From Acidimicrobiia bacterium (GTDB lineage Bacteria; Actinomycetota; Acidimicrobiia; Spongiisociales; ZC4RG35): a stretch of DNA of 64,000 bases. Shown here one piece after another: positions 8,442-58,218 of the stretch (positions are counted from its first letter, which is position 1; each line of letters starts with the position of its first letter). The stretch lies in NCBI GenBank assembly GCA_046756405.1, contig JBHHWH010000002.1, forward strand, positions 240-64,239, read 5' to 3'. A program made the position numbers and the translations under genes. The notes beneath the pieces were generated by a model. That model had not been told where the DNA came from. It saw only the letters and a program-made list of their open reading frames with translations, and ran no database searches.

Positions 8442-9986
8442 ATGGCTCTTTTCCATCGCAAGGGCCCCGAGATTGTTCGCAAGTCCACCTCGGAAGGCAC
8501 CGTCGAAGAACGCAAGATCGTCCGGGTTAGAGGAAAGAAGGTAGAGGTTCGGAGGGTAGAGGCACCCTCGCAGAAGAAGACCCGGGCCGACAAACGCCGC
8601 AAGAAGAAGACCCCCGACAAGTCATCCAACGGGATAGTCACCTCCCGAACTCGAACCCGCCGACCCGTTGACGACGAGATCATCGTCCCTACCGAATCGG
8701 CGAGGAAGCAGATGCTGGTGAGTGTCAGCCCTCACCAGACCCAGATTGTCATCCTGGAGGGCCCTGTCCTCGTCGAACACTATGTGGCCCGGGAGGACTC
8801 CAACTCAGTGGCGGGCAACATCTACCTGGCGGTGACCCGGAACGTTCTGCCGGGCATGGAGGCCGCCTTCCTTGACTTCGGCGCTTCCAAGAACGGGGTG
8901 CTCTACGCCTCGGACGTGGCAGTGCCGGGTAGGGAGGGCAACCGAAAGCCGCTGCGCATCGAAGAGGTCCTTTCCGAGGGCACCGAGGTTCTGGTCCAGG
9001 TCACAAAGGATGCGATGGGTGCCAAGGGCGCACGCCTCACCGGGACGCCGTCTCTTCCCGGCCGATACCTGGTTCTGGTTCCCAACTCGGACAACATCGG
9101 CATCAGCCGCCGCCTACCCGACTCGGACCGGAACCGCCTCCGCGACACCATCAACCGGGTCAAGCCCTCCGGGTACGGGGTGATCGTGCGCACGGCAGCG
9201 TTGTATGCCTCGCCGGAGGATCTCGCCGCGGACATCTCCCGCCTGGTCAAGGAATGGGAGCGGATCACGGAGGAGGCCGCCAAAGGGGGCGCTCCCCGCC
9301 TCATCTACAAGGAGCCCGATCTGCTCATAAAGGTCATCCGGGAGCACTTCACTCCAGACTTCCGCAAGCTGCTGATCGACGACGTCGAGGCCTACCACGC
9401 GGTGGTCGACTATCTCCATGCGACCGCTCCCGAGCTGGTCTCCAAGGTCCACCACTACCAGGACTCGATTCCTCTCTTCGACCGCTACCACGTCGAGGAC
9501 CAGCTCAAAAAGGCTCTGGACCGCAAGGTCTACCTGCCTTCGGGAGGCCACCTGGTCATCGACCGCACCGAGGCCCTGACGGTGATCGACGTCAACACCG
9601 GCAAGTTTGTCGGCTCCTCCAACCTGGAGGAGACGGTCCTCCAGAACAACCTGGAGGCGGCCGAGGAGATCGGCCGTCAGCTCCGGTTGCGCGACATCGG
9701 CGGGATCATCGTCATCGACTTCATCGACATGGAGTCGACGAAGAACCAACAGAAGGTGCTGCGCCGCCTGAAGGAGACCCTGGCCAAGGACAAGACCCGC
9801 ACCCAGGTCTTCGACGTCTCTCACCTCGGTCTGGTGGAGATGACCAGGAAGAACGTCTCCGCCGGTCTTCTCGAACAGTTCTCCCGAAAGTGCGAGCACT
9901 GTGCCGGGCGGGGGATCATCATCGATGAGTCGTTCCGTCCCACTCCGGTGTCGATGGAGGCGGCGGCCGCGGAGATGGAGCAGTGA
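8442..9986 (+). CDS. rne: RNase E/G-family endoribonuclease with Arg/Lys-rich N-terminal extension
   Basis: About 514 aa from internal ATG (MALFHRKG...). S1 domain, DNase-I-like and Zn-link regions (VIDFIDM, CEHCAGRG). Conserved rne-rplU-rpmA-obg neighbourhood. Confidence 0.85.
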   Translation: MALFHRKGPEIVRKSTSEGTVEERKIVRVRGKKVEVRRVEAPSQKKTRADKRRKKKTPDKSSNGIVTSRTRTRRPVDDEIIVPTESARKQMLVSVSPHQTQIVILEGPVLVEHYVAREDSNSVAGNIYLAVTRNVLPGMEAAFLDFGASKNGVLYASDVAVPGREGNRKPLRIEEVLSEGTEVLVQVTKDAMGAKGARLTGTPSLPGRYLVLVPNSDNIGISRRLPDSDRNRLRDTINRVKPSGYGVIVRTAALYASPEDLAADISRLVKEWERITEEAAKGGAPRLIYKEPDLLIKVIREHFTPDFRKLLIDDVEAYHAVVDYLHATAPELVSKVHHYQDSIPLFDRYHVEDQLKKALDRKVYLPSGGHLVIDRTEALTVIDVNTGKFVGSSNLEETVLQNNLEAAEEIGRQLRLRDIGGIIVIDFIDMESTKNQQKVLRRLKETLAKDKTRTQVFDVSHLGLVEMTRKNVSAGLLEQFSRKCEHCAGRGIIIDESFRPTPVSMEAAAAEMEQ

Positions 9987-10710: not shown

Positions 10711-11958
10711 ATGTTCGTTGACCGCGTCCGGGTTCATCTCCGCGGCGGGAACGGCGGCGCGGGCGTCGTTGCCTTCCAGAAGGTGAGGGGCAAGCCCAAA
10801 GGCAAGCCCACCGGCGGGAACGGGGGACCGGGGGGCTCGGTTATTCTCCGCGCCGACCCTTCAGTGGCCACCCTCCTCCGATACAAGCGCAACCCCCATC
10901 ATCAGGCGGGCCACGGGACCCACGGCGAAGGTGATCTGCGTCATGGAAAGGCGGGGAAAGACCTTGTACTGCCCGTGCCCCTGGGGACGGTGGTCATCGA
11001 TGAAGAGGGCACCGTGATCGCCGATCTCGTCGAGCCCGGCCAGGAGGTGGTCGCGGTGAGGGGAGGCCGAGGAGGGCTGGGCAACGCCGCCTTCGTTAGC
11101 CCCCACAATCGGGCCCCGTCCGTCGCCGAGCAGGGGGAGTACGGACGGGAAGCGTGGTTTGCCCTCGAGCTGAAGTTGGTGGCCGACGCCGCCCTCGTCG
11201 GGTTTCCCAACGCCGGGAAGTCCACCTTTATCTCCCGGGTCTCGGCTGCCAAGCCGAAGATCGCCGACTACCCCTTCACCACCCTCCAGCCCAATCTGGG
11301 AGTGGTAAGCCACGACGGCCGGGAGTTCGTCCTCGCCGACATCCCAGGCCTGATCGAAGGGGCGGCGCAGGGCAAGGGGCTGGGCCACGAGTTCTTGCGG
11401 CACACCGAACGAGCTGGGGTGCTTGTGGTGCTGCTGGACCCTTCCGAGACCCAGCTGGTGCCTCCTGAGCAACAGCTCGAGGTTCTGGTACGCGAGCTGT
11501 CCGAATACTCGCCTGAGCTCGCGGAACGGCCCCGGCTAGTGCTGGTCAACAAGGCCGACCTCGGGGGAGTGGAGGCGATCGCCGAGCGGTTGGGGGCGCT
11601 TCCCGTGTCCGCCCTCACCGGGGAGGGGCTGGACGGGGCCCTGCATGCGATCGCCGACCTGGTGGAGCAGGCAGAGCGGGAGGCCCCGGAGCGCAAGGGC
11701 TTCGTCCTCCATCGTCCCCTCGGACCCAGCTTCAGAGTCCACCGTGAAGAAGAGGCGTGGCGGGTAGAGGGGCAGGCTGCGGAGCGGGCGGTCCGCTTCG
11801 CCGACCTCACCAACCCGGAGGCAGCGGACCTTGCGGCCAGGCGGTTGGCCCGCCTCGGCGTCGAAGACGCCCTCCGTGCTGCCGGCGCCAAACCCGGCGA
11901 CGAAGTCCGCATCGGCGACCTCAGCTTCGAATTCAGCCAGGATCTGGAAGAGGAATAA
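10711..11958 (+). CDS. obg: GTPase Obg/CgtA
   Basis: Gly-rich Obg fold N-terminus (GGNGGAGVVAF...GGNGGPGGSVIL). G-domain motifs GFPNAGKST and DIPGLIEGA. C-terminal OCT domain. Confidence 0.95.
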   Translation: MFVDRVRVHLRGGNGGAGVVAFQKVRGKPKGKPTGGNGGPGGSVILRADPSVATLLRYKRNPHHQAGHGTHGEGDLRHGKAGKDLVLPVPLGTVVIDEEGTVIADLVEPGQEVVAVRGGRGGLGNAAFVSPHNRAPSVAEQGEYGREAWFALELKLVADAALVGFPNAGKSTFISRVSAAKPKIADYPFTTLQPNLGVVSHDGREFVLADIPGLIEGAAQGKGLGHEFLRHTERAGVLVVLLDPSETQLVPPEQQLEVLVRELSEYSPELAERPRLVLVNKADLGGVEAIAERLGALPVSALTGEGLDGALHAIADLVEQAEREAPERKGFVLHRPLGPSFRVHREEEAWRVEGQAAERAVRFADLTNPEAADLAARRLARLGVEDALRAAGAKPGDEVRIGDLSFEFSQDLEEE

Positions 11959-12071
11959 CGTTCTGTGGGGGTTTACGGACCGTTTTGGCCCGCAGACCCG
12001 CACAGAAAGTTATCCACAACCCTTCTGTGCGGGTTTACGGACCGTTTTGGCCCGCAGACCCGCACAGAACG
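11959..12071. repeat. Two tandem copies of a ~62-bp palindromic repeat unit filling the obg/trkH convergent intergenic region
   Basis: Copy A 11961-12007 and copy B 12023-12069. Each is ttctgtg(c/g)gggt-ttacggaccgttttggcccgcag-acccgcacagaa (12-bp stem), separated by agttatccacaaccc. Near-identical copies at 52146-52220 and 55299-55374. Confidence 0.8.
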
Positions 12072-12072
12072 A

Positions 12073-13566
12073 TTAGCGGCGCCAGAGGTCGCGGGTGAAG
12101 AGGACGAGCACGGGGAAGATTTCCAGGCGGCCGACGATCATCAGGCCCGAGAGCAACCACTTTGCCAGCTCGGGAAGGCCGGCGTAGGTCGCGGCCGGGC
12201 CCACCTGACCCAACCCAGGGCCTATGTTCCCGATGGAGGCGGCCACCGCCGAGGCGGCGGTCACCAGGTCGAGGCCTTCGCTGAGGTTGGCGTCGATGAA
12301 GGCCAGGGCGAAGGTCGAGGCCATGAACAGGAACATGTAGAACAGGAAGAACGACTGGATTGCCTCCACCACCGGTTCGTTGACCCTCTTGCCGCCGAAG
12401 CGGACGACGAAGATCCCCCGGGGGTGGACGAGACGACGGAGGTCGGCGAAGGCGGCCTTGCTCAGCACTCCAAGACGGAAGGTCTTGATTCCCCCGGCGG
12501 TCGAACCCGCCATGCCTCCGACGAACATCAAACCCATCACCATGATCTGTAGAGCGGGCCTCCAGGAGCCGAAGTCGGCAGAGGCGTATCCAGTCGTAGT
12601 CGTGATGGAGACCGTGTTGAAGGCGGCCTCCCTGATGGCCGCTTCGAGGCCAAGGTCGGCGAAAAGGCCTCCTGCGACGATGACGGTAGCGACAGCTGCG
12701 ATGGCCACATAGAGGCGGAACTCGGAGTTCCGCCAGTACTCCCCGGGCCGGGTAAGGGCCCGGAAGTGGAGTGCGAAGGACACCCCAGCAACGAACATGA
12801 AGAAGGTGATCACCCACTGGGTGTAGACGCTGAACCCAGCGATCGAAGTCGGCTCGGTACCGAATCCTCCGGTGGACATGGTGGTGAAGGAGTGGACCAC
12901 CGCCTGGAAGCCGGTCATGTCCCCCAGAGCCAGCATCACCACCTCGATCAGGGTTATGGCCGCGTAGACCAGCCACAGCCGTTTCGCCGTTTCCTGAACC
13001 CGGGGCGCAAGCCGGATGGGAGTGTGCCCGGGAGACTCGGCCTTCACCAGTTGCATGCCCCCGGTACCCAGCAAAGGGAGAATGGCCACGCCGAGGACTA
13101 TCACTCCCATGCCTCCCATCCACTGAGTCAGCGCCCTCCAGAAGGAGATACCCCGGGGGAGGGCACTGGGGTCGGGAACCACGGATGCACCGGTGGTGGT
13201 GAAACCCGAGGCGGTTTCGAAGACCGCATCCGAGACAGATGAAATCTCGCCGGTGAGCAGGTAGGGGAGAGCACCGAAGAGGGAGAAGACGAACCAGGCC
13301 ATTCCGACGGTGGCGAAGGCCTGTTTGACCGTGATCGTTTCGGGCTTGGGAACCAGACGGTGGCTGAGAAAGCCGGCGATGGCGGTGATGGCCGCGGCGA
13401 CGACCATGCCTGCCGCGTCGCCGCTCTCTCCGTAGAAGGTAGCGACGCCCGCCGAGATAGCCATCCCCAGGGCGACGAAGAGGAGCACCGAGCCGAGCAC
13501 GTAGGCGACGGTCTCGAGGAGTCTCCTCAAGGCCGAGCGGCTGGCCCGACTGTTGGTGTCGGTCAT
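12073..13566 (-). CDS. trkH: TrkH/KtrB-family K+ transporter membrane subunit
   Basis: 497 aa polytopic protein with repeated pore-loop GxG-like segments. Start overlaps the trkA stop (ATGA). Confidence 0.85.
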   Translation of the reverse strand: MTDTNSRASRSALRRLLETVAYVLGSVLLFVALGMAISAGVATFYGESGDAAGMVVAAAITAIAGFLSHRLVPKPETITVKQAFATVGMAWFVFSLFGALPYLLTGEISSVSDAVFETASGFTTTGASVVPDPSALPRGISFWRALTQWMGGMGVIVLGVAILPLLGTGGMQLVKAESPGHTPIRLAPRVQETAKRLWLVYAAITLIEVVMLALGDMTGFQAVVHSFTTMSTGGFGTEPTSIAGFSVYTQWVITFFMFVAGVSFALHFRALTRPGEYWRNSEFRLYVAIAAVATVIVAGGLFADLGLEAAIREAAFNTVSITTTTGYASADFGSWRPALQIMVMGLMFVGGMAGSTAGGIKTFRLGVLSKAAFADLRRLVHPRGIFVVRFGGKRVNEPVVEAIQSFFLFYMFLFMASTFALAFIDANLSEGLDLVTAASAVAASIGNIGPGLGQVGPAATYAGLPELAKWLLSGLMIVGRLEIFPVLVLFTRDLWRR

Positions 13567-27326: not shown

Positions 27327-28142
27327 GTGCAAGAGATGATGTCACAGAAGTCAGTGATGCAGGGTCGGCTCTGGAGTGCCCGAGCGGGGGACTGGGCGGA
27401 GACCCTGGAGGGACCCCAAGGATGGGGGATCCCCCTTTATAAACTAGTGCTTGATAGGGCCGACATCGGTCCTGGGGCGGCTGTCCTGGATGTGGGCTGC
27501 GGCGCCGGACGGTTCGTCAGGATGGCTGCCGACCGGGGGGCGACAGTGGCCGGTATCGATGCCGCGGAGGCCATGGTGGCGATCGCCCGGGAGCGCACCC
27601 CCGACGGCGACTTCCGTCTCGGTGACATGGAAGCGCTGCCCTGGGATGCAGCCACTTTCGACACCGTGACCGCCTTCAGCGCGCTCCAGTTCGCCACGGA
27701 CACAGGCAAAGCGCTGGGGGAAGCCGGGCGCGTGACTCGGAAGAATGGACGGATCGTCGTTGCGGTTCCGGGACCACCCGAGGACTCGGAGTTCACCCCG
27801 TTCATGATGGCGCTCCAGCCACTTATGCCGCCGCCGCCACCCGGGACAGCTTCAAGGGGGGATCCTTTCGCCCTTTCGGAGCCGCGGAAACTAGAAGAGC
27901 TGCTTCGCCACGCCGGACTGACGCCGCGAGAGGCCGGAAAGGTCGACTGTCCAATGGAGTTCGTAGACCAGGAAACGATGCTTGCGGGGATGCTTGCCGC
28001 AGGGCCGGCTGTCCTGGCAATCCAAAACGTAGGCGAGGAGGAGGTGCGCCGTGCCGCGATCCGGTCACTGGCTCCCTTCAGAAGCGCCGCTGGCGGCTAC
28101 CGACTGGAGAACACCTTCCAATACCACGTCGCCACGACTTGA
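27327..28142 (+). CDS. Class I SAM-dependent methyltransferase (Methyltransf_11-like)
   Basis: SAM motif I VLDVGCGAGRF. Post-I acidic residue GIDAAEAM. Start ambiguous: GTG 27327, or ATG 27336 or 27339. Confidence 0.75.
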   Translation: MQEMMSQKSVMQGRLWSARAGDWAETLEGPQGWGIPLYKLVLDRADIGPGAAVLDVGCGAGRFVRMAADRGATVAGIDAAEAMVAIARERTPDGDFRLGDMEALPWDAATFDTVTAFSALQFATDTGKALGEAGRVTRKNGRIVVAVPGPPEDSEFTPFMMALQPLMPPPPPGTASRGDPFALSEPRKLEELLRHAGLTPREAGKVDCPMEFVDQETMLAGMLAAGPAVLAIQNVGEEEVRRAAIRSLAPFRSAAGGYRLENTFQYHVATT

Positions 28143-28194
28143 GCCAGAGACGTGATCCTGAGCGCGGCATGATCGCTGACTGAGCGGAGGCCCT

Positions 28195-28860
28195 ATGGCT
28201 GGGTGTTGCAGTCTCGCCGACTATGGACAGGTCTTCAGCTCCCGGCAGGCGCGCTGGGACGCATGGAGATATGCAAGAAGGGGGCTCGGCTGGGCGCCTG
28301 GCCGGACCGTTGATCTGTTTAGGGATCGGGTCATAGACGGCGCTTCTCTGCTTGAGATAGGCGGTGGCATCGGAGACCTTCAGGTGGAGCTGCTGCGGCT
28401 AGGGGTGACTAGGGCGGTCTCGGTCGAGCTTTCACCCTCCTACGAGGAGACCGCGACAAGAATCCTGCGAGACGCCGGATTCGACACCGCGGTGACGCGA
28501 CTGACCGGGGACTTCATCGATATGTACGACCGCGTAGAGCGTGCCGACCTTGTGGTCATGCACAACGTTCTCTGTTGCTATCCGGATATGCGCCGCCTGG
28601 TTGAAGCCGCAGCGGAAAAGACCAGGAACTACTTGATTGTTAGCTACCCGCGCAACACATGGTGGCTGCGTGCCGCGGCCAAGACAATGAATCACGTCTG
28701 GTATCGGCGGGTACGGCGGTGCGACTTCAGGTTTTTCATCCACCCACCGGCCGAAGTCCGCCGAGCTGCGCTCTCCGCCGGCCTGAACCTGTTACATAGA
28801 GAGCGCAGCGTAGGAGACCATCTGGAGGTTTTTCGGAGGGGGGTCGATGCGACGACCTGA
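28195..28860 (+). CDS. Putative SAM-dependent methyltransferase-like protein
   Basis: 221 aa. Glycine-rich motif LLEIGGGIGDL followed by the acidic VSVELSP pattern. Good SD (GGAGG) 5 nt upstream. No closer family assignable by eye. Confidence 0.5.
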   Translation: MAGCCSLADYGQVFSSRQARWDAWRYARRGLGWAPGRTVDLFRDRVIDGASLLEIGGGIGDLQVELLRLGVTRAVSVELSPSYEETATRILRDAGFDTAVTRLTGDFIDMYDRVERADLVVMHNVLCCYPDMRRLVEAAAEKTRNYLIVSYPRNTWWLRAAAKTMNHVWYRRVRRCDFRFFIHPPAEVRRAALSAGLNLLHRERSVGDHLEVFRRGVDATT

Positions 28861-28892
28861 GCGAGGCACCGAACGACCGACAGGGTCGATCC

Positions 28893-28915
28893 GGCTCCCG
28901 TCGAGCCCTTTTTCT
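28893..28915 (+). terminator. Weak intrinsic-terminator candidate (ggctc-ccgtc-gagcc followed by CTTTTTCT)
   Basis: 5-bp GC stem plus T5 tract 30 nt downstream of the methyltransferase-like stop. Lies in the convergent gap before the EAL gene. Confidence 0.3.
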
Positions 28916-29021
28916 ACTGGCTGACGATGACACCAGCCTGCCGAGGTCCGCGGGTGTTCGGGCGATTTGGTCCCCATAGCCTCGAACCGCCCCCACCTCG
29001 TTTCACACCGTGTGGGCTCCT

Positions 29022-29816
29022 TTAAGCATCCACGTCGGGTCCGGTCCTCACTGGTCTGGACAGGGAGTTCCCCTGTACGAGCCGTACCCCGAGGTCATAG
29101 AGGGTCTGGACATCCGCGACGTTTTCTACGCGTTCGGCGATAAGGCGGATGCCCCACTCTTTGCACCAGGTCGCTGCTTCGGCTAGATCGACCTGGGCCA
29201 TAGGGTCATCAATCAGTCCTGAGATCACGTCTACCTTCGCAAAGTCGGGACGAAGATCGGTCAACGTTGGGTGCCAAGCGGACAAGCTTCCAAGGGGAAT
29301 GTCATCGATTGCCACCAGAGCCCCTGCTCCCCGCAACTGGAAGACGAACTCTTGGCATGCTCGGTTGAAGACCAAAGGCGCAGAAATGTCGCAGACGAGG
29401 CGACTAGACAACTCTGGCAGCACTCGTTTCGCCAGATCAAGGGCGACCGGCGGCGATGCGTTGAGAAACAGCAGTGACTCGGTGAGCATCCGCGGTGGTG
29501 CCTGCACCGCTCTCATGGCGGCGGTGATCTCAAGATCTCGGGATAGTTCCATGTCCGAGGCGACCCGGAACCACAGGCCAGCCGGGATGGCGGCGTCGGC
29601 CGGAAAACGGGCCAGTGCTTCGTAGCCGTGGATCCTCGGTATCCCTCCATGCAGCCCGAATACGGGCTGGAAGACTATGTCGACCGAGCCTTCGGCGATG
29701 ACACTCGGTAGCAGCATGCGAACCTTACGTTCCCACTGCCAATACCGAGCGAGGGCCAGCAGGTCGGCCTGTGACCCCGACGTCTGATGGAGCTGTTCCG
29801 GTACCGAGGATTCCAC
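29022..29816 (-). CDS. Standalone EAL-domain protein with degenerate DDFGTG motif
   Basis: EAL signature present (HGYEALARF). The DDFGTG position reads AIDDIPLG. A C-terminal (E/Q)xLVQG-like stretch (VRLVQGNSLSRPV) follows. GTG start; an in-frame ATG at 29717 is an alternative. Confidence 0.75.
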   Translation of the reverse strand: MESSVPEQLHQTSGSQADLLALARYWQWERKVRMLLPSVIAEGSVDIVFQPVFGLHGGIPRIHGYEALARFPADAAIPAGLWFRVASDMELSRDLEITAAMRAVQAPPRMLTESLLFLNASPPVALDLAKRVLPELSSRLVCDISAPLVFNRACQEFVFQLRGAGALVAIDDIPLGSLSAWHPTLTDLRPDFAKVDVISGLIDDPMAQVDLAEAATWCKEWGIRLIAERVENVADVQTLYDLGVRLVQGNSLSRPVRTGPDVDA

Positions 29817-29963
29817 TGTCAGCGGTATCGACTCAAAGGGGAAAATCCTTGAGCCGGACCGATGATGTCGCCGGTCTCAGTGACTGATCCGCCTCGCCCC
29901 AGCAGGACGTGGATCCAGGTGCCCAGTACTATTATTAAACGTAGTAGTCAGACGGGATTGGCC

Positions 29964-30797
29964 ATGGTGGATCAGAGCCTCCTGCTCGTCCTTGTGCTGG
30001 CCCTCGCCGCCGCGGTCGCGGGGATAGCCGCCGTCGTTCGCGATCGCCCGCGACCCCAAACCCCGGAGCGGGTTCCCACGGGTGGGTCACCCCAAGTTCA
30101 CTTGCCGCCGTCGACTGAACCGAAGAGCTTGGAGCAGCCGGCTCCGAAGCCGGTGAAGTTTCATAGACCCTCTGTGGGGGACCGCGAGGGTCTTGGCCGC
30201 GGTGGCGCTCAGCGGGTCATCGAAGTCCCTCCCGAAGAAGCAGGACTCACCAGGCGTCGTTTCCTAAACCGTGCCACAGCCACGTTCTTCGGGACGTATC
30301 TCGCCCTCTTAGGGTCTTCGATGCTCTCGTTCTTCTGGCCCAGGCTGACCGGTGGTTTCGGCACCAAGGTAGATGTCGGGCCGATTGCCGACATCAATAC
30401 CCAGTTGATCGCCTCTGACGGGAGGTCTTCCTTCGTGGAGATACCCGAGGCGCGCGCCTACATCGTCCCCGTCACCAAAGAGCAGCTAGAGGCCTCCCAG
30501 TTTGCAGGACAGGACCTGGAGGTCGATGGGGTGATGGCGCTGTGGTGGCGCTGTGTCCACCTCGGATGCAAGACCCCGTGGTGCGCCAGCTCGATTGGAT
30601 TCGAGTGCCCGTGTCATGGATCGAGGTACACGCTGCTCGGAGAGTATGCGGCCGGTCCTGCACCCCGTAACCTGGACCGCTTCGTCGTTTCGTTGACCGA
30701 GGACCGCCGTCTCATCGTGGACACCTCTTCCATCGTCCAGACCCCCAGGGCACCCAAGCACGCGGTGCCGTACCCTCAGGGCCCGACCTGCGTGTGA
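29964..30797 (+). CDS. bc1/b6f-type Rieske [2Fe-2S] protein with N-terminal TM helix and internal twin-arginine motif (QcrA-like)
   Basis: Box I CVHLGC and box II CPCHGS with the extra disulfide cysteines typical of bc-complex Rieske proteins. Tat-like RRRFLNRATA precedes a second hydrophobic helix. Start uncertain (track ORF from 29862). Confidence 0.8.
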   Translation: MVDQSLLLVLVLALAAAVAGIAAVVRDRPRPQTPERVPTGGSPQVHLPPSTEPKSLEQPAPKPVKFHRPSVGDREGLGRGGAQRVIEVPPEEAGLTRRRFLNRATATFFGTYLALLGSSMLSFFWPRLTGGFGTKVDVGPIADINTQLIASDGRSSFVEIPEARAYIVPVTKEQLEASQFAGQDLEVDGVMALWWRCVHLGCKTPWCASSIGFECPCHGSRYTLLGEYAAGPAPRNLDRFVVSLTEDRRLIVDTSSIVQTPRAPKHAVPYPQGPTCV

Positions 30798-50143: not shown

Positions 50144-50974
50144 CTATGCGGAGTCTCGCAGGAACCGAGCGACGATGTCGTTCCATACTGTGGCCCTCTC
50201 GAAGTACGGGGAGTGGCCGGTGTTCTCCACGACGGCTAGTCGACTTCCCGGTATGAGACGGGTGGCGGACTCGATCAGCGAAGGCGGGAAGATGGGGTCT
50301 TTCTCACCGACGACGAACAGGGTTGGTGCTTCCACTTCGCCGGCCCGGCTGGTGTGGTCGGTGGACATCAGCAGCGGCATGATCGTCTCGGGAGCCGGGG
50401 GATCGGTGAGGCTGCCGAGCTGGGTGTAGAGGAAGGCCTGGGCCAGGTCCTCGGTGAGCAACTGGGTGCCCACGGCTGGATGGAAACCCAGGGGCCACTC
50501 GTCGGGCGGCGGCGCGGCGGCTACCACCTGGGCGTATTCGCTGAGCACCTGGTGGATCTCGGGGGTGAAGAGCCCGGCGGTGGTGTCGGCGAGGACCAGG
50601 GACAGGGCGCGGTCGGGGTGGTCGATGGCGAAGCCGAGGGCGGACCAGCCTCCCATGGACTGGCCCACGATGTGAGCCCGGGAGATCTCAAGATGGTCGA
50701 GGACCGCGGCTAGGTCACGGGCCGCGGGTACCGGCCCTAGTTCGCCAGTGATGGCCGAGGAGCGTCCGAACCCACGCTGGTCCCAGGTCACAACGCGGTA
50801 TTCGCAGGCGAGGGAGGCCACCTGCTGGTACCACACGGCGTGACTCCCACCCATGCCATGGCCGAAGACCACCGTCTGCTCACCCTTCCCCCAACATTCG
50901 AAGTAGACCTGCTCGCCTTCGGAGGCAACGAAGCCACGGATAGACACGCGCGGAGAGGGTAGATCAGGCTGCAC
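50144..50974 (-). CDS. Alpha/beta-fold hydrolase, 3-oxoadipate enol-lactonase-like
   Basis: 276 aa. HG motif VVFGHGMGGS. Nucleophile elbow VGQSMGG. Overall PcaD-like layout; substrate not assignable. Confidence 0.7.
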   Translation of the reverse strand: MQPDLPSPRVSIRGFVASEGEQVYFECWGKGEQTVVFGHGMGGSHAVWYQQVASLACEYRVVTWDQRGFGRSSAITGELGPVPAARDLAAVLDHLEISRAHIVGQSMGGWSALGFAIDHPDRALSLVLADTTAGLFTPEIHQVLSEYAQVVAAAPPPDEWPLGFHPAVGTQLLTEDLAQAFLYTQLGSLTDPPAPETIMPLLMSTDHTSRAGEVEAPTLFVVGEKDPIFPPSLIESATRLIPGSRLAVVENTGHSPYFERATVWNDIVARFLRDSA

Positions 50975-51173
50975 CTCGGGGCTGTGGGGCGCTGCAGCAG
51001 ACCTAGGTCCTGGCTGTCCGCGCGGAGGAAGGTGATGAACGGCCCTACCCCCCTCGATGAAGGTCCGGCGACCCCGAACTCTGGCGCAGCTTCGGGATGG
51101 AATGGAAGGAGCACATCAGTTGGGCCCCTTTCTCAACAGGGTCGCCCCAATCATCGGAGGAGTGAGAGGGTCA

Positions 51174-51410
51174 ATGACAGAGAAACGTCCTCCACACGAA
51201 GAGCCCCGGTCGGCGTTACCACCGGAACTGGCTGAGCTAGGTCTTGAAGACAAGCCCGATGGGCCCGGCGCGGCGGCCATGGTCGCCGCAGGGCTCAGCA
51301 TTCTCATCATGGGCCTGTTCACCCTGCTCAGTGAGATTTCGGAGGGGGTCCACGAGTTCCTCGCGGCCTTCGACTTCGGTGTGGGTGTAGGGCCACTGGG
51401 GCCGGCATAG
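51174..51410 (+). CDS. Hypothetical small membrane protein (78 aa, single TM)
   Basis: ATG preceded by a GGAGGAGTGAGAGGG SD. Hydrophobic segment MVAAGLSILIMGLFTLL. No homology recognised. The tracked ORF 51057.. is longer. Confidence 0.3.
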   Translation: MTEKRPPHEEPRSALPPELAELGLEDKPDGPGAAAMVAAGLSILIMGLFTLLSEISEGVHEFLAAFDFGVGVGPLGPA

Positions 51411-51496
51411 GCGTATTGGCGTTCATGATCGCCTGGCTCTTCCTCAATCGCCTCCTCGCCCCTATGGCTGGCGGTCCCGGCGTCTCCGTGGACCGC

Positions 51497-51895
51497 TTAG
51501 TCGCGAAGCTGGTCGGCCGCCTCCACTTCAGCGGCCAGGCGGTCCAGGTCGGCGATGCCCGGATCGTGGGTCCATACCTCCAGGCCCGCCTGCAGATCGG
51601 CGTAGCGTTTCGCCTGTTCGGGGGTTGCCCGCACCGTGATCGGTACGTCTTCGGGAAGGGACTCTTTGTACTTCTTGAGGATCGCCCGGTGCTGGGGCCG
51701 GTCCAAGTCGAGGAGGAACACCACTCCGTGGGCGCCATCTGCCTTCGGACAGCCTTTCCCGGCGAGGATGGGGCACAGGCTCTTTGGGGGCGGACCATGG
51801 CAGACGATCACGGAATGGCCGAGGCTCTCCAAGAAGTCGACATCGACACTTTCGTCGGCCGGAATGTCCACTAAAACCGCACCTGGCTCGGACAT
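51497..51895 (-). CDS. Hypothetical protein (132 aa, Cys/Pro-containing motif CHGPPPKSLCPILAGKGCPKADGAHG)
   Basis: Clean ATG start. Codon usage consistent with the genome. No family recognised by eye. Confidence 0.4.
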   Translation of the reverse strand: MSEPGAVLVDIPADESVDVDFLESLGHSVIVCHGPPPKSLCPILAGKGCPKADGAHGVVFLLDLDRPQHRAILKKYKESLPEDVPITVRATPEQAKRYADLQAGLEVWTHDPGIADLDRLAAEVEAADQLRD

Positions 51896-52145
51896 CCGTG
51901 CCTCCCTTCTCTACTCTTTCAACTTGCCTGACCCGATGGGGCACCGGCAAGGGTCCGAGGGCCCGGGACCGTTAGCCAGGGGTGCAGGAAAACGGATCAG
52001 CCGGGCTGGCTTGGGTGTCCTTGTGGACAAGGGTTCAAGACGGGGCGGGGACTACCAGGCGAGCTCGTCGCAGCTGGCTGTGCCCTGCAACTCGATCTGC
52101 AGGGTGGCATGGGCTATCCCGTGGGAAGCCAGGAGTTCGCGGGCC

Positions 52146-52220
52146 CACACGGAACGTTTTCCACAGACTTTCTGTGCGGGTTTACGGACCGTTTTGGCCT
52201 GAAGACCCGCACGGAACGGT
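52146..52220. repeat. Copy of the palindromic interspersed repeat (1.2 units), immediately 3' of the histidine-kinase stop codon
   Basis: cacacggaacgttttccacagac-TTTCTGTGCGGGTTTACGGACCGTTTTGGCCTGAAGACCCGCACGGAAcgg. Near-identical to 55299-55374 and to both copies at 11959-12071. Confidence 0.8.
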
Positions 52221-52228
52221 TTGTCGGC

Positions 52229-53791
52229 CTAGCCGTTGTGGTGCGCCGTGATCAGATAGAGGGAGAACTCAACTCCGTCGGGTACCTTTCGATAGAGCAC
52301 ATCCCCGCCCATCTGCCGCGCGAAGAGACGAGCGTTGGCGAGTCCGACCCCCATGTAGGGGGCCTGGCCGGGATCCGTGGGGATGGCGGCATACTTCTCG
52401 AATAGGAGTCTCTCTTCGGCGTCGGGACCTGGCCCGTTGTCCTTGACTACGAGCTCGGCCCAGTTCTCTCCCGACCGCGTCTCCACGGTGATGGCCGGCC
52501 CGCCATGTTCGATGGCGTTGCTGAGTAGCTCATACACGATCTGTCCTACCATGGTCGGGTTCGCATGGGCCCAGGTCTCTCTGACCGCCAGAGTGATCCG
52601 GGCTCTGCTGGCCGGATCTACCTCATTGACGACCTCGGCGGCGATCGCAGCCAGATCGAGCAGTGACAGCCCTGTGGTGGCCCCCCAGGAATATCCCCGA
52701 GAGGCGATCAAGATCTCTTGGAACACTCTGTTGAGTCGCTTGGCCTCGCTCCTGAGAAGTCCGATCTGCTCCCTCCGATCGACCTCGTCCAACTTCTCCC
52801 ACTCTTCCTCCAGCAGCTCAGAGAAGCCGATCACACCGGTTAGGGGGGTGCGGATTCGATGGGCCACCGACTCGAGGAAGGCGTCCCTGGAATGGATGTG
52901 CCGGCGGAGACGCTCTTCTAGCTCGATTGTCTTAGTTCTGTCTATGAGAGCAATCAGCACCCGGGAGTAGTCGTCGAAGCCTTCGAGGCGCCCAGCGATC
53001 CAGAACAGGTAGAGGTGAATCGGATCGCCTCTGAGCGTTCGCCCGATGAAACTGGCCTCGAAGTCGGTCTGGCCCTCTGTCACGGCGACGATCTGGTCGC
53101 GAAGGATCTTCCGGGAGCTGGTAGTTAATTGATCAACAGCCAGACTTCCCATGAGATCTTCGGGAGACTGGGCGTCGAGGAGATCGGCAGCGGCAGCATT
53201 GGCGGCTACCACCTTGATCAAGCTGGCGGCGAAGTGAACTTCGGAAGGATTCGCATCCAAGTAGGCACCGACATCGGTGATACCGGCTGCTTCGAGTTCC
53301 TCGACCCACTCCAGCACCTCCGAGAAGTCCTCTACCAGGAGAGCATGGGGTGTCCGGTCGAACATGGATGTGCTCAGTTTCAGAGCATGTTGCAAGGCCT
53401 GCGCGGCTTTCCACGACGCTGTTATGTCGATTAGAGCCCCTTCGGCGCCCACGATCTCCCCGTCGGACCCGACCACAGCACGGCCTACGTCCTGGACCCA
53501 GATATGACGCCCCGAGTAGTGCTTGAGCCCGACGACCCGGTCTGACACCACACCCGTCTCGAAGAGTTCAGCAAGCCAGGCCTTCCGCTCTGCAGGATCT
53601 TGGTAGAGGCTCTCCAAGGGGACCTCTCTCAGGGTCCGCAAGTCAGGAAACCCCAGCAGATCCACCAAGGCGGTGTTTGCGAACTCGATGACGCCACTTA
53701 TGGAAGTCCGGTAGAGGGGTACTGGGAAGTTCGGAGCCTCGAGCGTCAGTGACCTATTGACGCCTAGTCCGGGATCCTGGTGCTCATCCAT
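52229..53791 (-). CDS. PAS-domain sensor histidine kinase (cytoplasmic; no TM segments evident)
   Basis: 520 aa. Two PAS-like regions. HisKA H-box ESVAHRIRTPLTGVIGFSELL. HATPase_c N and G boxes (LLSNAIEHG, VKDNGPGP). Start overlaps the EAL gene stop by 8 nt. Confidence 0.8.
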   Translation of the reverse strand: MDEHQDPGLGVNRSLTLEAPNFPVPLYRTSISGVIEFANTALVDLLGFPDLRTLREVPLESLYQDPAERKAWLAELFETGVVSDRVVGLKHYSGRHIWVQDVGRAVVGSDGEIVGAEGALIDITASWKAAQALQHALKLSTSMFDRTPHALLVEDFSEVLEWVEELEAAGITDVGAYLDANPSEVHFAASLIKVVAANAAAADLLDAQSPEDLMGSLAVDQLTTSSRKILRDQIVAVTEGQTDFEASFIGRTLRGDPIHLYLFWIAGRLEGFDDYSRVLIALIDRTKTIELEERLRRHIHSRDAFLESVAHRIRTPLTGVIGFSELLEEEWEKLDEVDRREQIGLLRSEAKRLNRVFQEILIASRGYSWGATTGLSLLDLAAIAAEVVNEVDPASRARITLAVRETWAHANPTMVGQIVYELLSNAIEHGGPAITVETRSGENWAELVVKDNGPGPDAEERLLFEKYAAIPTDPGQAPYMGVGLANARLFARQMGGDVLYRKVPDGVEFSLYLITAHHNG

Positions 53792-55091
53792 GGCCGTCTC
53801 GGGTCACGAAGTCGGTTATGGCGTCGTCCGGCATGGGGCGGCCCAACAGGAATCCCTGGGCTCCGTCGAATCCGGCGGCCCTGACCAGTGCAAGCTGGTG
53901 GGATGTCTCGACACCCTCGGCATAGCAAGTAGGCACAAGATCGTGTAGGGCGGCGACGAGCTGGCCAAGGTAGGTGTCGACCTGTAGGCCTCGTTGCGGC
54001 CTGCCCCTGATGACGGACCCATCGAGCTTGATGGAGTCGAGGGGCAATCGCTGGGCCGCGGCCAGATTTGAATACCCGGTTCCGAAGTCGTCCAGAGAGA
54101 GGCCGAACCCCCGCTCCTTCAGTGTGGTAAGAGCGTCGTTCGCCGTCGGGTCGAAACCGACTCGCTCGGTCACCTCGATCACAATCGAACCATCGGGTAG
54201 TCCGTGACCTGAGGGCGCGTGGCTCAGGAGAGAGTCGAGGGCAGCCTCGTGCAGCTGCTTGGGGGAGACGTTGACGTGGATGTTGGGGGGTGCTGGCAGA
54301 TCGTCGTGCCAAGCTTTGGCCAGAGCGATGGTCCGGTCGAGGACCAGGTTTCCGAGGGCTCCGATAACCCCTCGTTCCTCTGCAATGGCCACAATCCGCC
54401 CAACATCAATCAGTCGGGAAGTGAGCGATGGCCAGCGCACCAGCGCCTCGGCGGCGAGGACCCGAGGATCGGATAGCGAAACGATCGGCTGATACCACAC
54501 CTCCATTTCGGACTCGTCGAGCAGAGACGAGTTGAGGGCCCTCAACGCATGCTGCCGCCTCTTCTCCTCGAGCTGTGTTCGCTCGTCGAGCATGTGGATT
54601 CGATCGGCTGTCAAGCGTGCCCGCTGCATAGCGTCCCGCACGGCGGGAAGCAGTCCTCCGGGTCGGGAACGAAGCGAGGTCGACAGACTCGCGCCGACGG
54701 ACACTTCTGGGAAGAAGGGGGCTTCAGGAGGACCTAGAGGGCGTTCTAGGGCGTCGCGAATCCGTCTGGCAGCTTCGCGGACTTCCTCCCAACCAGTGAC
54801 ATCACGCAGAGACACAGCCCAGGTGTGTGCATCGAGCCTCTCTCGGGTGTCAGTGGGGTAGATGAGCCGGGACAGCCTCCGGTCTAGTTCCTCGGCCCGC
54901 TCCGGGGCAGTACCAGCCCCATCCAGGTTGTGTACGCCGGCCACCACCAGACCTACGTGTAGTCCCGAGGCGCTGTGCGCCCAAGCGTCCACGTCCTCGG
55001 CGAGCAGTGTGTCGAACTTGGCTGTCTGACGGGCCCTGCCGGAGTCCGATCTGACGAAGTGTGGTCCCGGACGTGACTTGTGTTCGTCCAA
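53784..55091 (-). CDS. Degenerate-GGDEF plus EAL-domain c-di-GMP phosphodiesterase
   Basis: 435 aa. N-terminal GGDEF-like fold without the GG(D/E)EF motif. Intact EAL signatures: EALVRW, N (NVSP), E (EVTE), DDFGTGYS, K, E, Q (AQGFLLGRP). TTG start with a GGGAGTGGAG SD. Confidence 0.8.
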   Translation of the reverse strand: MDEHKSRPGPHFVRSDSGRARQTAKFDTLLAEDVDAWAHSASGLHVGLVVAGVHNLDGAGTAPERAEELDRRLSRLIYPTDTRERLDAHTWAVSLRDVTGWEEVREAARRIRDALERPLGPPEAPFFPEVSVGASLSTSLRSRPGGLLPAVRDAMQRARLTADRIHMLDERTQLEEKRRQHALRALNSSLLDESEMEVWYQPIVSLSDPRVLAAEALVRWPSLTSRLIDVGRIVAIAEERGVIGALGNLVLDRTIALAKAWHDDLPAPPNIHVNVSPKQLHEAALDSLLSHAPSGHGLPDGSIVIEVTERVGFDPTANDALTTLKERGFGLSLDDFGTGYSNLAAAQRLPLDSIKLDGSVIRGRPQRGLQVDTYLGQLVAALHDLVPTCYAEGVETSHQLALVRAAGFDGAQGFLLGRPMPDDAITDFVTRDGHG

Positions 55092-55231: not shown

Positions 55232-55298
55232 AGGGCACAAACGGCCAGCTCAAAGCGGCGTTGACTTGTGCTCGAATCAAGCCCTCTGCTTCAGCAGG

Positions 55299-55374
55299 CC
55301 CACACGGAACGTTTTCCACAGACTTTCTGTGCGGGTTTACGGACCGTTTTGGCCTGAAGACCCGCACGGAACGG
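55299..55374. repeat. Copy of the palindromic interspersed repeat (1.2 units), ending exactly at the hbd stop codon
   Basis: cccacacggaacgttttccacagac-TTTCTGTGCGGGTTTACGGACCGTTTTGGCCTGAAGACCCGCACGGAAcgg. Differs from the 52146-52220 copy by only a few terminal bases. Confidence 0.8.
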
Positions 55375-56226
55375 TTAGTGGTCGTAGAAGCCGCGGCCTG
55401 TCTTCTTGCCCAACAGTCCCGCTTCGACCATCCGGGAAAGGAGCGGGGGGGAGGCGTATAGGGGCTCCTTATACTCCTCGTAGAGAACGTCGGCGACGTA
55501 CTTGGTGGTGTCCAGCCCCACGAAGTCCGCCAGCTCCAACGGACCCATCGGGTAGTTGGCCCCCAGCCTCATCGCGGTGTCGATGTCCTCCTTGGAGGCA
55601 ACACCCGCCTCGTACATGCGGATCGCCGCCAGCATGTAGGGAATCAGCAGCATGTTGACGATGAACCCGGCACGATCCTTGGCCCGAACCACGGTCTTGC
55701 CGAGGCTCTCGGCGAAGGCCTGGGCCCTGTCGGCGACGCTGGGGTCGGTCTGGACGGTGGTGACCAGCTCCACGAGGGCCATCACCGGGACCGGGTTGAA
55801 GAAGTGCATCCCCACGACATGTCCCGGCCTCTGGGTGACCGCGGCGAGGCGAGTGAGGGGAATCGACGAAGTGTTGGAGGCGAGGATCGCATCCCGATCA
55901 CTGACCACCTCGTCGAGGTCGGAGAAGAGCTTCTTCTTCAGTTCCTCGTTCTCGGTGGCCGCCTCGATGACGATCTGACGGTCCGCCTGCTCGGCGAAGT
56001 TGGTGGTGATCGTTATCCGGGCCTTGATCTCATCCGCAGCGGCCCTGTCCAGCTTCCCCCTTTCCACTGCTCGGGATAAGGATTTGTCGATTCTCGCCAT
56101 GGCCGCTTCAGCCGCTTCAGGGCTGATCTCATGGACGATGACGTCTGCTCCCACCTTGGCGCACACCTCGGCGATGCCGGACCCCATCAGCCCGCCTCCG
56201 ACGACTCCAACTCGTTCGATACTCAA
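55375..56226 (-). CDS. 3-hydroxyacyl-CoA / 3-hydroxybutyryl-CoA dehydrogenase
   Basis: About 283 aa from TTG preceded by an AAGGAGGT SD (SIERVGVVGGGLMGSGIA...). NAD Rossmann motif and C-terminal 3HCDH domain (NTSSIPLT, GMHFFNPVPVM). The track ORF has an upstream extension. Confidence 0.85.
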   Translation of the reverse strand: MSIERVGVVGGGLMGSGIAEVCAKVGADVIVHEISPEAAEAAMARIDKSLSRAVERGKLDRAAADEIKARITITTNFAEQADRQIVIEAATENEELKKKLFSDLDEVVSDRDAILASNTSSIPLTRLAAVTQRPGHVVGMHFFNPVPVMALVELVTTVQTDPSVADRAQAFAESLGKTVVRAKDRAGFIVNMLLIPYMLAAIRMYEAGVASKEDIDTAMRLGANYPMGPLELADFVGLDTTKYVADVLYEEYKEPLYASPPLLSRMVEAGLLGKKTGRGFYDH

Positions 56227-56419
56227 GACCACCTCCTTGATGTCACCCAGCGATGATTGTCGGCGCGACCGAGGACTGCCAACCGGCACCTCTTGCTTCC
56301 GGGAAGATCTGTGGCCGGCCCGCACACAACCCTCGTGGGGCTATCGTTCCCCGGATGGAGACGTCCGTCCTGCCACGGGGTGTGACGGACGGTGCCTGAC
56401 GTCTAACTAGGGAGACAGA

Positions 56420-58138: not shown

Positions 58139-58218
58139 TCCCAACAAGTAGGTGAAGAGAGGGGGGCGGGTCTGACCCGCTCCCCTCTCTGGCACCTCTC
58201 CGACCTACTTAGGCTGAA

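Follow-up and report, generated by a model that had tools for sequence, protein, structure and literature searches.

Analysis of a 64,000-nucleotide (nt) stretch of contig JBHHWH010000002.1 from an uncultured bacterium of the class Acidimicrobiia (hereafter the window) revealed a 47-nt palindromic repeat, present in four copies at three loci, with every hairpin lying 2 to 12 nt from a stop codon. The feature is real and clearly non-random; the number of 47-nt cores expected by chance was 0 in 100 shuffles of the sequence, which confirms the interspersed family of four copies at three loci described in a first-pass annotation of the same DNA. We propose, with a probability of about 0.6, that the repeat represents a lineage-restricted family of dispersed extragenic palindromes of the repetitive extragenic palindromic (REP)/REPIN or Tuberculosis Rho-independent terminator (TRIT) kind, which provides hairpins at gene ends and forms a hot spot of rearrangement. 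It is best classed as a new family of a kind already known, the dispersed gene-end palindromes.

The four cores are located at 11961-12007, 12023-12069, 52170-52216 and 55325-55371, all on the + strand. Each consists of two inverted arms of 12 nt, TTCTGTGCGGGT and ACCCGCACAGAA, enclosing a loop of 23 nt (23-24 nt across ten aligned copies), and the consensus of the core is TTCTGTG[C/G]GGGT-TTACGGACCGTTTTGGCC[C/T]G[C/A]AG-ACCCGCAC[A/G]GAA. A 15-nt spacer is optional, and with the spacer the unit stacks at a tandem period of 62 nt. The copies in the window are arranged as follows.

11961..12007, hairpin copy W2: 2 nt past the obg stop (TAA, 11956-11958); arms TTCTGTGGGGGT/ACCCGCACAGAA, single G.G mismatch
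12008..12022, spacer between the tandem units: 15 nt, AGTTATCCACAACCC; carries TTATCCACA at 12010-12018
12023..12069, hairpin copy W1: perfect 12-bp stem; 3 nt separate its end from the trkH stop (TTA on the + strand, 12073-12075)
52139..52222, copy W3: R-arm remnant 52143-52154, spacer 52155-52169 (TTTTCCACA at 52157-52165), hairpin 52170-52216
55294..55377, copy W4: R-arm remnant 55298-55309, spacer 55310-55324 (TTTTCCACA at 55312-55320), hairpin 55325-55371

The tandem pair W2-W1 occupies the entire convergent gap of 114 nt between obg and trkH (11959-12072), exactly as had been described, and the R and L arms that flank its spacer form an alternative hairpin with the spacer as loop. The single copies W3 and W4 are built alike, from a degenerate R-arm remnant, the 15-nt spacer and a full hairpin, and are identical at 83/84 positions over 52139-52222 and 55294-55377; they had been located correctly, but their similarity is wider than originally reported. 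The earlier claim that all stems are perfect or contain only G-U pairs applies to W1, which is perfect, but not to W2 with its G.G mismatch, and holds for W3 and W4 on one strand only: the A to G change in their right arm gives a G-U wobble in + strand RNA and a C.A mismatch in - strand RNA. The repeat also yields open pseudo-ORFs (spurious open reading frames, ORFs) in all three + frames. The recurring peptides noted previously are indeed present in the six-frame translation and could mislead gene callers, and no match to them was found in a collection of 5.8 billion proteins (21 candidates, none scoring).

The copies border on five genes.

10711..11958, + strand: obg (GTP1_OBG, DUF1967); stop codon adjoins the tandem pair
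12073..13566, - strand: trkH; TAA stop adjoins the tandem pair
52229..53791, - strand: PAS-PAS-HisKA-HATPase histidine kinase, second gene of the module bracketed by W3 and W4 (Pfam); GC content at third codon positions (GC3) 0.725
53784..55091, - strand: EAL-domain protein, first gene of the bracketed module (Pfam); longest ORF given, with a possibly later true start; GC3 0.70
55375..56226, - strand: hbd, 3-hydroxybutyryl-CoA dehydrogenase; 283-aa form, as seen in homologues

The distance from stop codon to hairpin is 2 nt at obg, 3 nt at trkH, 3 nt at hbd, 7 nt at a cation-efflux gene of relatives (L013/L014) and 12 nt at the histidine kinase. Every copy had been placed 0-10 nt from a stop, which is correct for obg, trkH and hbd (2-3 nt) and incorrect for the kinase hairpin. 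The W3 hairpin lies 3' of the kinase stop (52229-52231) and ~245 nt upstream of the minus-strand ORF 51497-51895, and the hairpin of W4, 3' of the hbd stop (55375-55377), precedes the EAL gene by ~200 nt. The gaps that hold the hairpins measure 114-340 nt, the three co-directional cases being ~280-340 nt long, and uniform placement would rarely yield the observed stop-proximal positions (~0.05 per co-directional locus by our own estimate). In addition, each full copy has a CG directly 5' of its left arm, and the flanks of 10 copies revealed no target-site duplication beyond this 5' CG. The stops that lie 2-3 nt from a hairpin, those of obg, trkH and hbd, are all TAA, a codon that ends only 8/49 ORFs of the window. 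Among the relatives, trkH ends in TAA wherever the element is present, and two that lack it have TGA. This bias hints, with small numbers, at insertion targeted beside stop codons or at a stop supplied by the element.

In a canonical intrinsic terminator, a GC-rich hairpin leads straight into a U-tract of 7-9 nt. No T-run follows the hairpin on either strand at any copy in the window, and a consensus scanner for canonical intrinsic terminators calls no site at any of them. Other gene ends in the window bear unique strong hairpins, with T-rich tails on some only, and the repeat therefore occupies the usual niche of gene-end hairpins. One such unique hairpin, at ~58150-58200 just past an SBP_bac_5 gene, reaches ~-42 kcal/mol with a G/C-rich stem of 16 bp and has no T-tract.

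The TrkH of the window is identical to a protein that NCBI assigns to a metagenome-assembled genome (MAG) of an Acidimicrobiia bacterium. The distribution of the family was examined in the trkH and hbd loci of graded relatives, ~195 kb in total. The element stands 3 nt past the trkH stop in relatives whose TrkH is 88% (L005), 84% (L018) and 81% (L006, L007) identical, and is also adjacent to trkH in the metagenome contig L004. At this obg/trkH-type site L006 and L007 contain one unit, compared with two in the window. An extra locus occurs in the 81% relatives (L013, L014), 7 nt past the stop of the cation-efflux gene mentioned above, with perfect arms and an unrelated loop. Relatives with TrkH identity of 80% or less and different synteny (L008-L011) carry no element, so that the family is confined, as sampled, to a narrow clade. 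At gathering thresholds, the sole Rfam match in the window was a tRNA-Ala elsewhere in it, and the E-value mode gave only miRNA-hairpin noise far below threshold. A blastn search of a plasmid collection with the repeat gave no match, and the arms pattern gave 0 matches in viral contigs. With the loop, which is the variable part of the element, a 19-mer gave one chance match without arms in a genome collection, in a Planctomycetes MAG, and a 20-mer gave two metagenome contigs of the same sample. A mini palindrome of 26 nt, TTCTGGGGTGAATTGGACCCTCAGAA, whose arm ends match the family, was observed in a relative with 92% identical hbd (L015, 980-1005), 3 nt past the hbd TAA, where the large element stands in the window. 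The identical 26-mer occurs in L004 (1576-1601), 22 nt upstream of a gene start, and is absent from the window.

Alignment of the ten copies revealed that the 12-nt arms are essentially invariant, while the sequence of the loop drifts. At the trkH site the arms are 24/24 identical between the window and each of L005, L018 and L006, and the four-fold degenerate sites of trkH in the same three comparisons are 0.53, 0.58 and 0.48 identical, respectively. Covariation analysis, suggested in the first-pass annotation as a check, gave no compensatory change: 0/20 pairs of the extended helix are altered on both sides, shuffles score equally or better, and all six arm substitutions break a pair. Since the arms are fully identical, compensatory changes are zero and arm changes disrupt pairing, the sequence of the repeat is maintained and not just its fold. 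Such a pattern is expected of a site read by a protein or of a family homogenised among copies, not of an RNA helix selected for pairing. The predicted folds differ between copies. The minus-strand RNA of W1 reaches -39.8 kcal/mol with an extra inner stem of 8 bp, and W1, W2, L003a, L004, L005 and L006 favor the trkH-sense (minus) strand via inner-stem G-U pairs, whereas W3 and W4 favor the plus strand. A consistent RNA sense strand was rejected, as W3 and W4 oppose the other 6/8 folded copies and the inner stem of variants is broken without compensation.

The similarity of the trkH-site loop to that of the window drops with phylogenetic distance, from ~22/23 through 19/23 to 15/24 as read from the alignment, in keeping with vertical descent of this copy from one old insertion. 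The loop of W3 and W4 is 20/23 identical to that of the trkH copy of the same genome. These two copies, at the kinase and at hbd, are mutual closest relatives with a common truncated end, and no repeat is found downstream of hbd in the 87-88% relative L012; therefore W3 and W4 are recent intragenomic duplicates. Judged from these comparisons, the lineage demonstrably makes new copies by duplicating the segment in full, truncated end included, and copies at orthologous positions outlast the saturation of synonymous sites.

The copies also coincide with breaks of several kinds. In the metagenome contig L003, one copy has its loop interrupted by an rve/IS481-like insertion sequence (IS) with a 391-aa transposase and terminal inverted repeats of ~48 nt. 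Another copy is directly followed by an IS110-family element with a 355-aa DEDD transposase, which has GACCCGCACAGA on both sides. The two elements are located at 126-1390 and 1497-2750, and their ends differ from the repeat arms. A guide segment of the IS110-family element complementary to the repeat was considered and dropped, as the sole shared sequence, the 12-nt GACCCGCACAGA, is uninterpretable. IS110-family elements have been documented to target REPs. One flank is common to L003 and L004 as far as the repeat, beyond which the two contigs diverge; this represents either a rearrangement between strains or an assembly fork at the repeat. Moreover, five short contigs terminate in or at repeats (L002, L005, L015, L017 and L018), indicating that assemblers treat the repeat as multi-copy. 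One such contig, from the window's own sample, is exactly the EAL-kinase segment between W3 and W4.

The closest known counterpart is TRIT of Mycobacterium, described together with the program RNIE as 147 palindromic, sequence-conserved copies (PMC3152330). TRITs show a very narrow distribution around stop codons and are restricted to the genus, and their authors suspected that a factor binds the conserved stem (PMC3152330). Similar to TRIT, the repeat is a palindrome present in multiple copies that could act in either direction, conserved in sequence as well as structure, narrowly placed at stop codons, devoid of a canonical U-tract and found in one actinobacterial clade. The likeness to a mycobacterial terminator-associated motif drawn in the first-pass annotation is apt as regards these described properties. 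TRIT is absent from Rfam. The two differ in that TRIT is reported only from Mycobacterium and the repeat occurs in uncultured Acidimicrobiia, and in that TRITs mostly lie inside the coding sequence (around -8) whereas the repeat copies begin 2-12 nt past the stop. In Term-seq of M. tuberculosis the predicted terminators, among them TRIT, each coincide with just 2-4% of the mapped 3' ends, so that the terminator label is insecure even for TRIT.

The repeat also resembles the REPs, REPINs and bacterial interspersed mosaic elements (BIMEs) of Proteobacteria, which are mobilised by REP-associated tyrosine transposases (RAYTs). These are likewise short extragenic palindromes with conserved inverted arms around a spacer, occur in mosaic or tandem layouts with a spacer motif, persist vertically for long and are targets of IS110-family and other IS elements. 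The arms around the 23-24-nt loop share the geometry of a REPIN doublet; however, they are not themselves palindromes, and the units stack directly in the same orientation and do not alternate. The repeat has a CG flank and no conserved 5' tetranucleotide of the GTAG type. BIME-1 carries an IHF site, and REP elements stabilise the 3' ends of mRNA. No RAYT or Y1_Tnp domain was found in the gene tables of the fetched loci or among 18 window ORFs scanned with Pfam. Mycobacterial interspersed repetitive units (MIRUs) are tandem units of 40-100 nt, variable in copy number, in intergenic gaps where they abut stop and start codons. Similar to MIRUs, the repeat belongs to Actinomycetota and varies in its number of tandem units (two in the window, one in L006/L007). 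MIRUs differ in being non-palindromic and located within operons, whereas the repeat stands at the ends of transcription units.

Based on these observations, we propose a working model of the family. The invariance of the arms would reflect sequence-specific recognition by a trans-acting factor, or else continual homogenisation among many copies; a candidate factor may be a HUH/RAYT-type transposase or recombinase, or a nucleic-acid-binding protein. The start 2-3 nt past the stop, together with the flanking CG and the absence of a target duplication, could result from insertion targeted beside stop codons; alternatively, copies may survive only at places that tolerate or benefit from a hairpin. 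Upon transcription, the hairpin (-22 to -40 kcal/mol) would most likely serve as a gene-end element independent of a U-tract, which would block 3' exonucleases and cause pausing or insulation between convergent or successive transcription units. As a side effect, the copies would become hot spots of IS insertion, recombination and assembly breaks. The conserved terminator or RNA-stability element envisaged in the first-pass annotation is in part borne out, as the hairpins are stop-proximal, but no canonical terminator is called and no covariation was found. Since TRIT predictions overlap so few mapped 3' ends, a terminator function of the repeat is plausible but unproven.

Several points weigh against the proposal of a dispersed gene-end family. 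The relevant DNA amounts to only ~195 kb, and any copy number per genome is an extrapolation. No RAYT or other candidate for a mobilising enzyme was seen among the scanned ORFs of the window or in the fetched loci. The orientation of the element is ambiguous, since the fold preference differs between copies (six minus, W3 and W4 plus) and the spacer in L003 is inverted relative to the loop. With no U-tract, and with few mapped 3' ends at TRITs, it is doubtful whether such elements are terminators. Finally, it is unusual for a selfish repeat to be retained as this one is at the trkH site, and its retention there could instead reflect purely vertical functional conservation.

A possible alternative, though not a probable one, is that the copies are purely selfish miniature mobile elements of the REPIN or MITE (miniature inverted-repeat transposable element) type, without host function, which are found beside stop codons because they are harmless there or because a transposase targets a stop-proximal motif. 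Near-identical copies at unrelated loci, sharing even the truncated end, are consistent with this explanation, as are the restriction to a narrow clade, the targeting of copies by IS elements, and arm changes that disrupt pairs and are never compensated, with degenerate copies such as that in L004. The CG 5' of every full copy and the absence of a target duplication would moreover fit insertion of the HUH type. However, the trkH copy keeps 24/24 arm positions past synonymous saturation, where an unselected insertion should decay unless refreshed, and tolerance explains the avoidance of promoters but not a distance of 12 nt or less from the stop in gaps of ~280-340 nt. The repeat shares terminal inverted repeats, a short variable interior and an intergenic location with MITEs such as the Correia elements of Neisseria, RUP and ERIC, but it differs from them in lacking a target-site duplication and in being, at 47 nt, shorter than known MITEs, and no parent IS with matching ends or RAYT was seen in the DNA compared. 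MITEs can provide terminators or stop codons.

The second alternative concerns the module between W3 and W4. These copies had been described as direct repeats bracketing an operon of a histidine kinase and an EAL-domain protein, and both the arrangement and, by Pfam, the genes were verified. Along 6.6 kb, L012 and the window are colinear at 84.5% nucleotide identity, up to a break that falls precisely on the hbd stop, the point where the window's repeat starts. At the position downstream of hbd, L012 contains a non-orthologous kinase/EAL pair, ~30% identical to that of the window, in the opposite orientation and with no repeat. An origin of the L012 module by inversion of the EAL-kinase segment between repeats was rejected, as both proteins are only ~30% identical and the genes are different ones, and a remnant of an L012-type module at 50974-52138 was rejected because tblastn gave no match there. 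At the start of the L012 EAL gene, just before the contig end, a 27-nt unit, GGCTTCTCATCGGGTCTCGGGTTTCTC, is present in two tandem copies (8851-8915). Within the window the EAL (0.70) and kinase (0.725) genes rank lowest in GC3 of the 49 ORFs passing a GC3 > 0.70 filter (mean 0.806). An atypical island at 27327-30797, with GC3 of 0.68-0.73 compared with a window mean of 0.81, contains two methyltransferases, a second EAL-domain gene (29022-29816, - strand) and a Rieske-domain protein, and has no flanking repeats. GC3 as proof of a foreign origin of the EAL-kinase genes was dropped, since this repeat-free island is equally low.

The evidence is possibly that of an exchangeable module, which may have integrated by a crossover within the repeat. 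It is nevertheless unlikely, in our view, that the copies are recombination sites bounding a swappable cassette, in which case EAL-kinase DNA carrying one repeat would have crossed over with a repeat lying downstream of hbd, leaving a direct repeat on either side. This explanation would account for the direct orientation of W3 and W4, their 83/84 identity and their status as mutual closest copies, for the end of L012 colinearity at the repeat start, for the non-orthologous, inversely oriented and repeat-free pair of L012 and for the low GC3 of both genes; a trkH-adjacent copy likewise marks the synteny break in L004. Against it, the copies at obg/trkH and past the cation-efflux gene bracket nothing, other relatives vary in what lies on either side of hbd, with or without repeats, low GC3 also occurs in the repeat-free island, and the near-identity of copies 3 kb apart would equally follow from local gene conversion. 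The copies resemble attC sites of integrons as imperfect palindromes directly 3' of the ORFs of a module that they flank in direct orientation. Unlike attC, their arm ends, read from the sequence as CGTTCTG...CAGAACG, do not fit the RYYYAAC/GTTRRRY core sites, copies are found where nothing is bracketed, and no integron integrase or other recombinase was found near the module. Of the MITE-like or cassette-like nature considered in the first-pass annotation, the close kinship of W3 and W4, the end of synteny at the repeat and the different pair in L012 speak in favor, whereas no target-site duplication, parent insertion sequence or integrase was seen and one relative only is informative.

Equally improbable is an extended version of our proposal, in which the arms would be the site of a dedicated trans-acting factor, as a second, independent and non-mycobacterial case of the TRIT type, sequence-specific and with no need of a U-tract, the copies would also serve as recombination or insertion points where the EAL-kinase module is exchanged downstream of hbd, and a host protein would make a further contact at a DnaA box of the spacer.

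The latter motif was also considered on its own. The spacer sequence TTATCCACA or TTTTCCACA matches the DnaA-box consensus TTWTNCACA, although the consensus of Acidimicrobiia may differ. In the 64 kb of the window this consensus has only 3 matches, at 12010-12018, 52157-52165 and 55312-55320, all of them in repeat spacers, compared with a chance expectation of ~0.9 that we estimated from base composition. The same box, TTATCCACA, is found in an L003 spacer (1438-1448), inverted with respect to the loop of the hairpin, as though the stretch enclosed by inverted arms could be flipped. We regard it as very improbable that the elements are DNA sites for a protein in this form, for example DnaA-titrating sites displaying a consensus box between inverted arms. 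All matches in the window lie inside repeats, one recurs in L003, and the box is less variable than the rest of the spacer; but the boxes are not independent occurrences because all descend from one ancestral unit, the match was spotted after the fact, and the box is missing from the copies of the 81% relatives, being absent with the spacer from the single copy in L006/L007 and not matched by the spacer-like flank (GGTTGTCGCTAG) in L014. The DnaA box is therefore treated as an unexplained detail and not as evidence of function.

Ordinary, vertically inherited intrinsic terminators that are merely alike, with no dispersed family, would explain the strong hairpins right past stop codons, one convergent gap included, and the orthologous conservation of the trkH copy, but this explanation is highly unlikely and already contradicted, because identity over 47-84 nt spans non-homologous loci, which is impossible by convergence, while the copies also lack a U-tract and covariation and those at hbd and the kinase are missing from a close relative.

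Transcript ending without U-tract terminators is still debated in Actinomycetota. Reports of sequence-conserved palindromes at stop codons have until now been confined to TRIT of Mycobacterium. If our proposal of a dispersed gene-end family is correct, a second such family in a distant, uncultured actinobacterial class would make this type of gene-end element wider than one genus, and the invariant arms, pointing to a recognising factor, would offer a comparative handle on U-tract-free transcript ending. On the practical side, the repeats fragment short-read assemblies of MAGs of this lineage and mark synteny breakpoints and IS insertion sites. Given uncultured organisms and a familiar kind of element, the finding is useful but not surprising.

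Two minor observations concern the neighbouring genes. The longest ORF of hbd (55375-56325, 316 aa) is over-extended, as close homologues measure 282-284 aa, and the real start lies near 56226. In addition, the ~1.1 kb between an alpha/beta hydrolase gene and the repeat (50975-52138) contains only two small ORFs, 51057-51410 on the + strand and 51497-51895 on the - strand. Neither gave a Pfam match, and the GC pattern by codon position suggests that both are coding.

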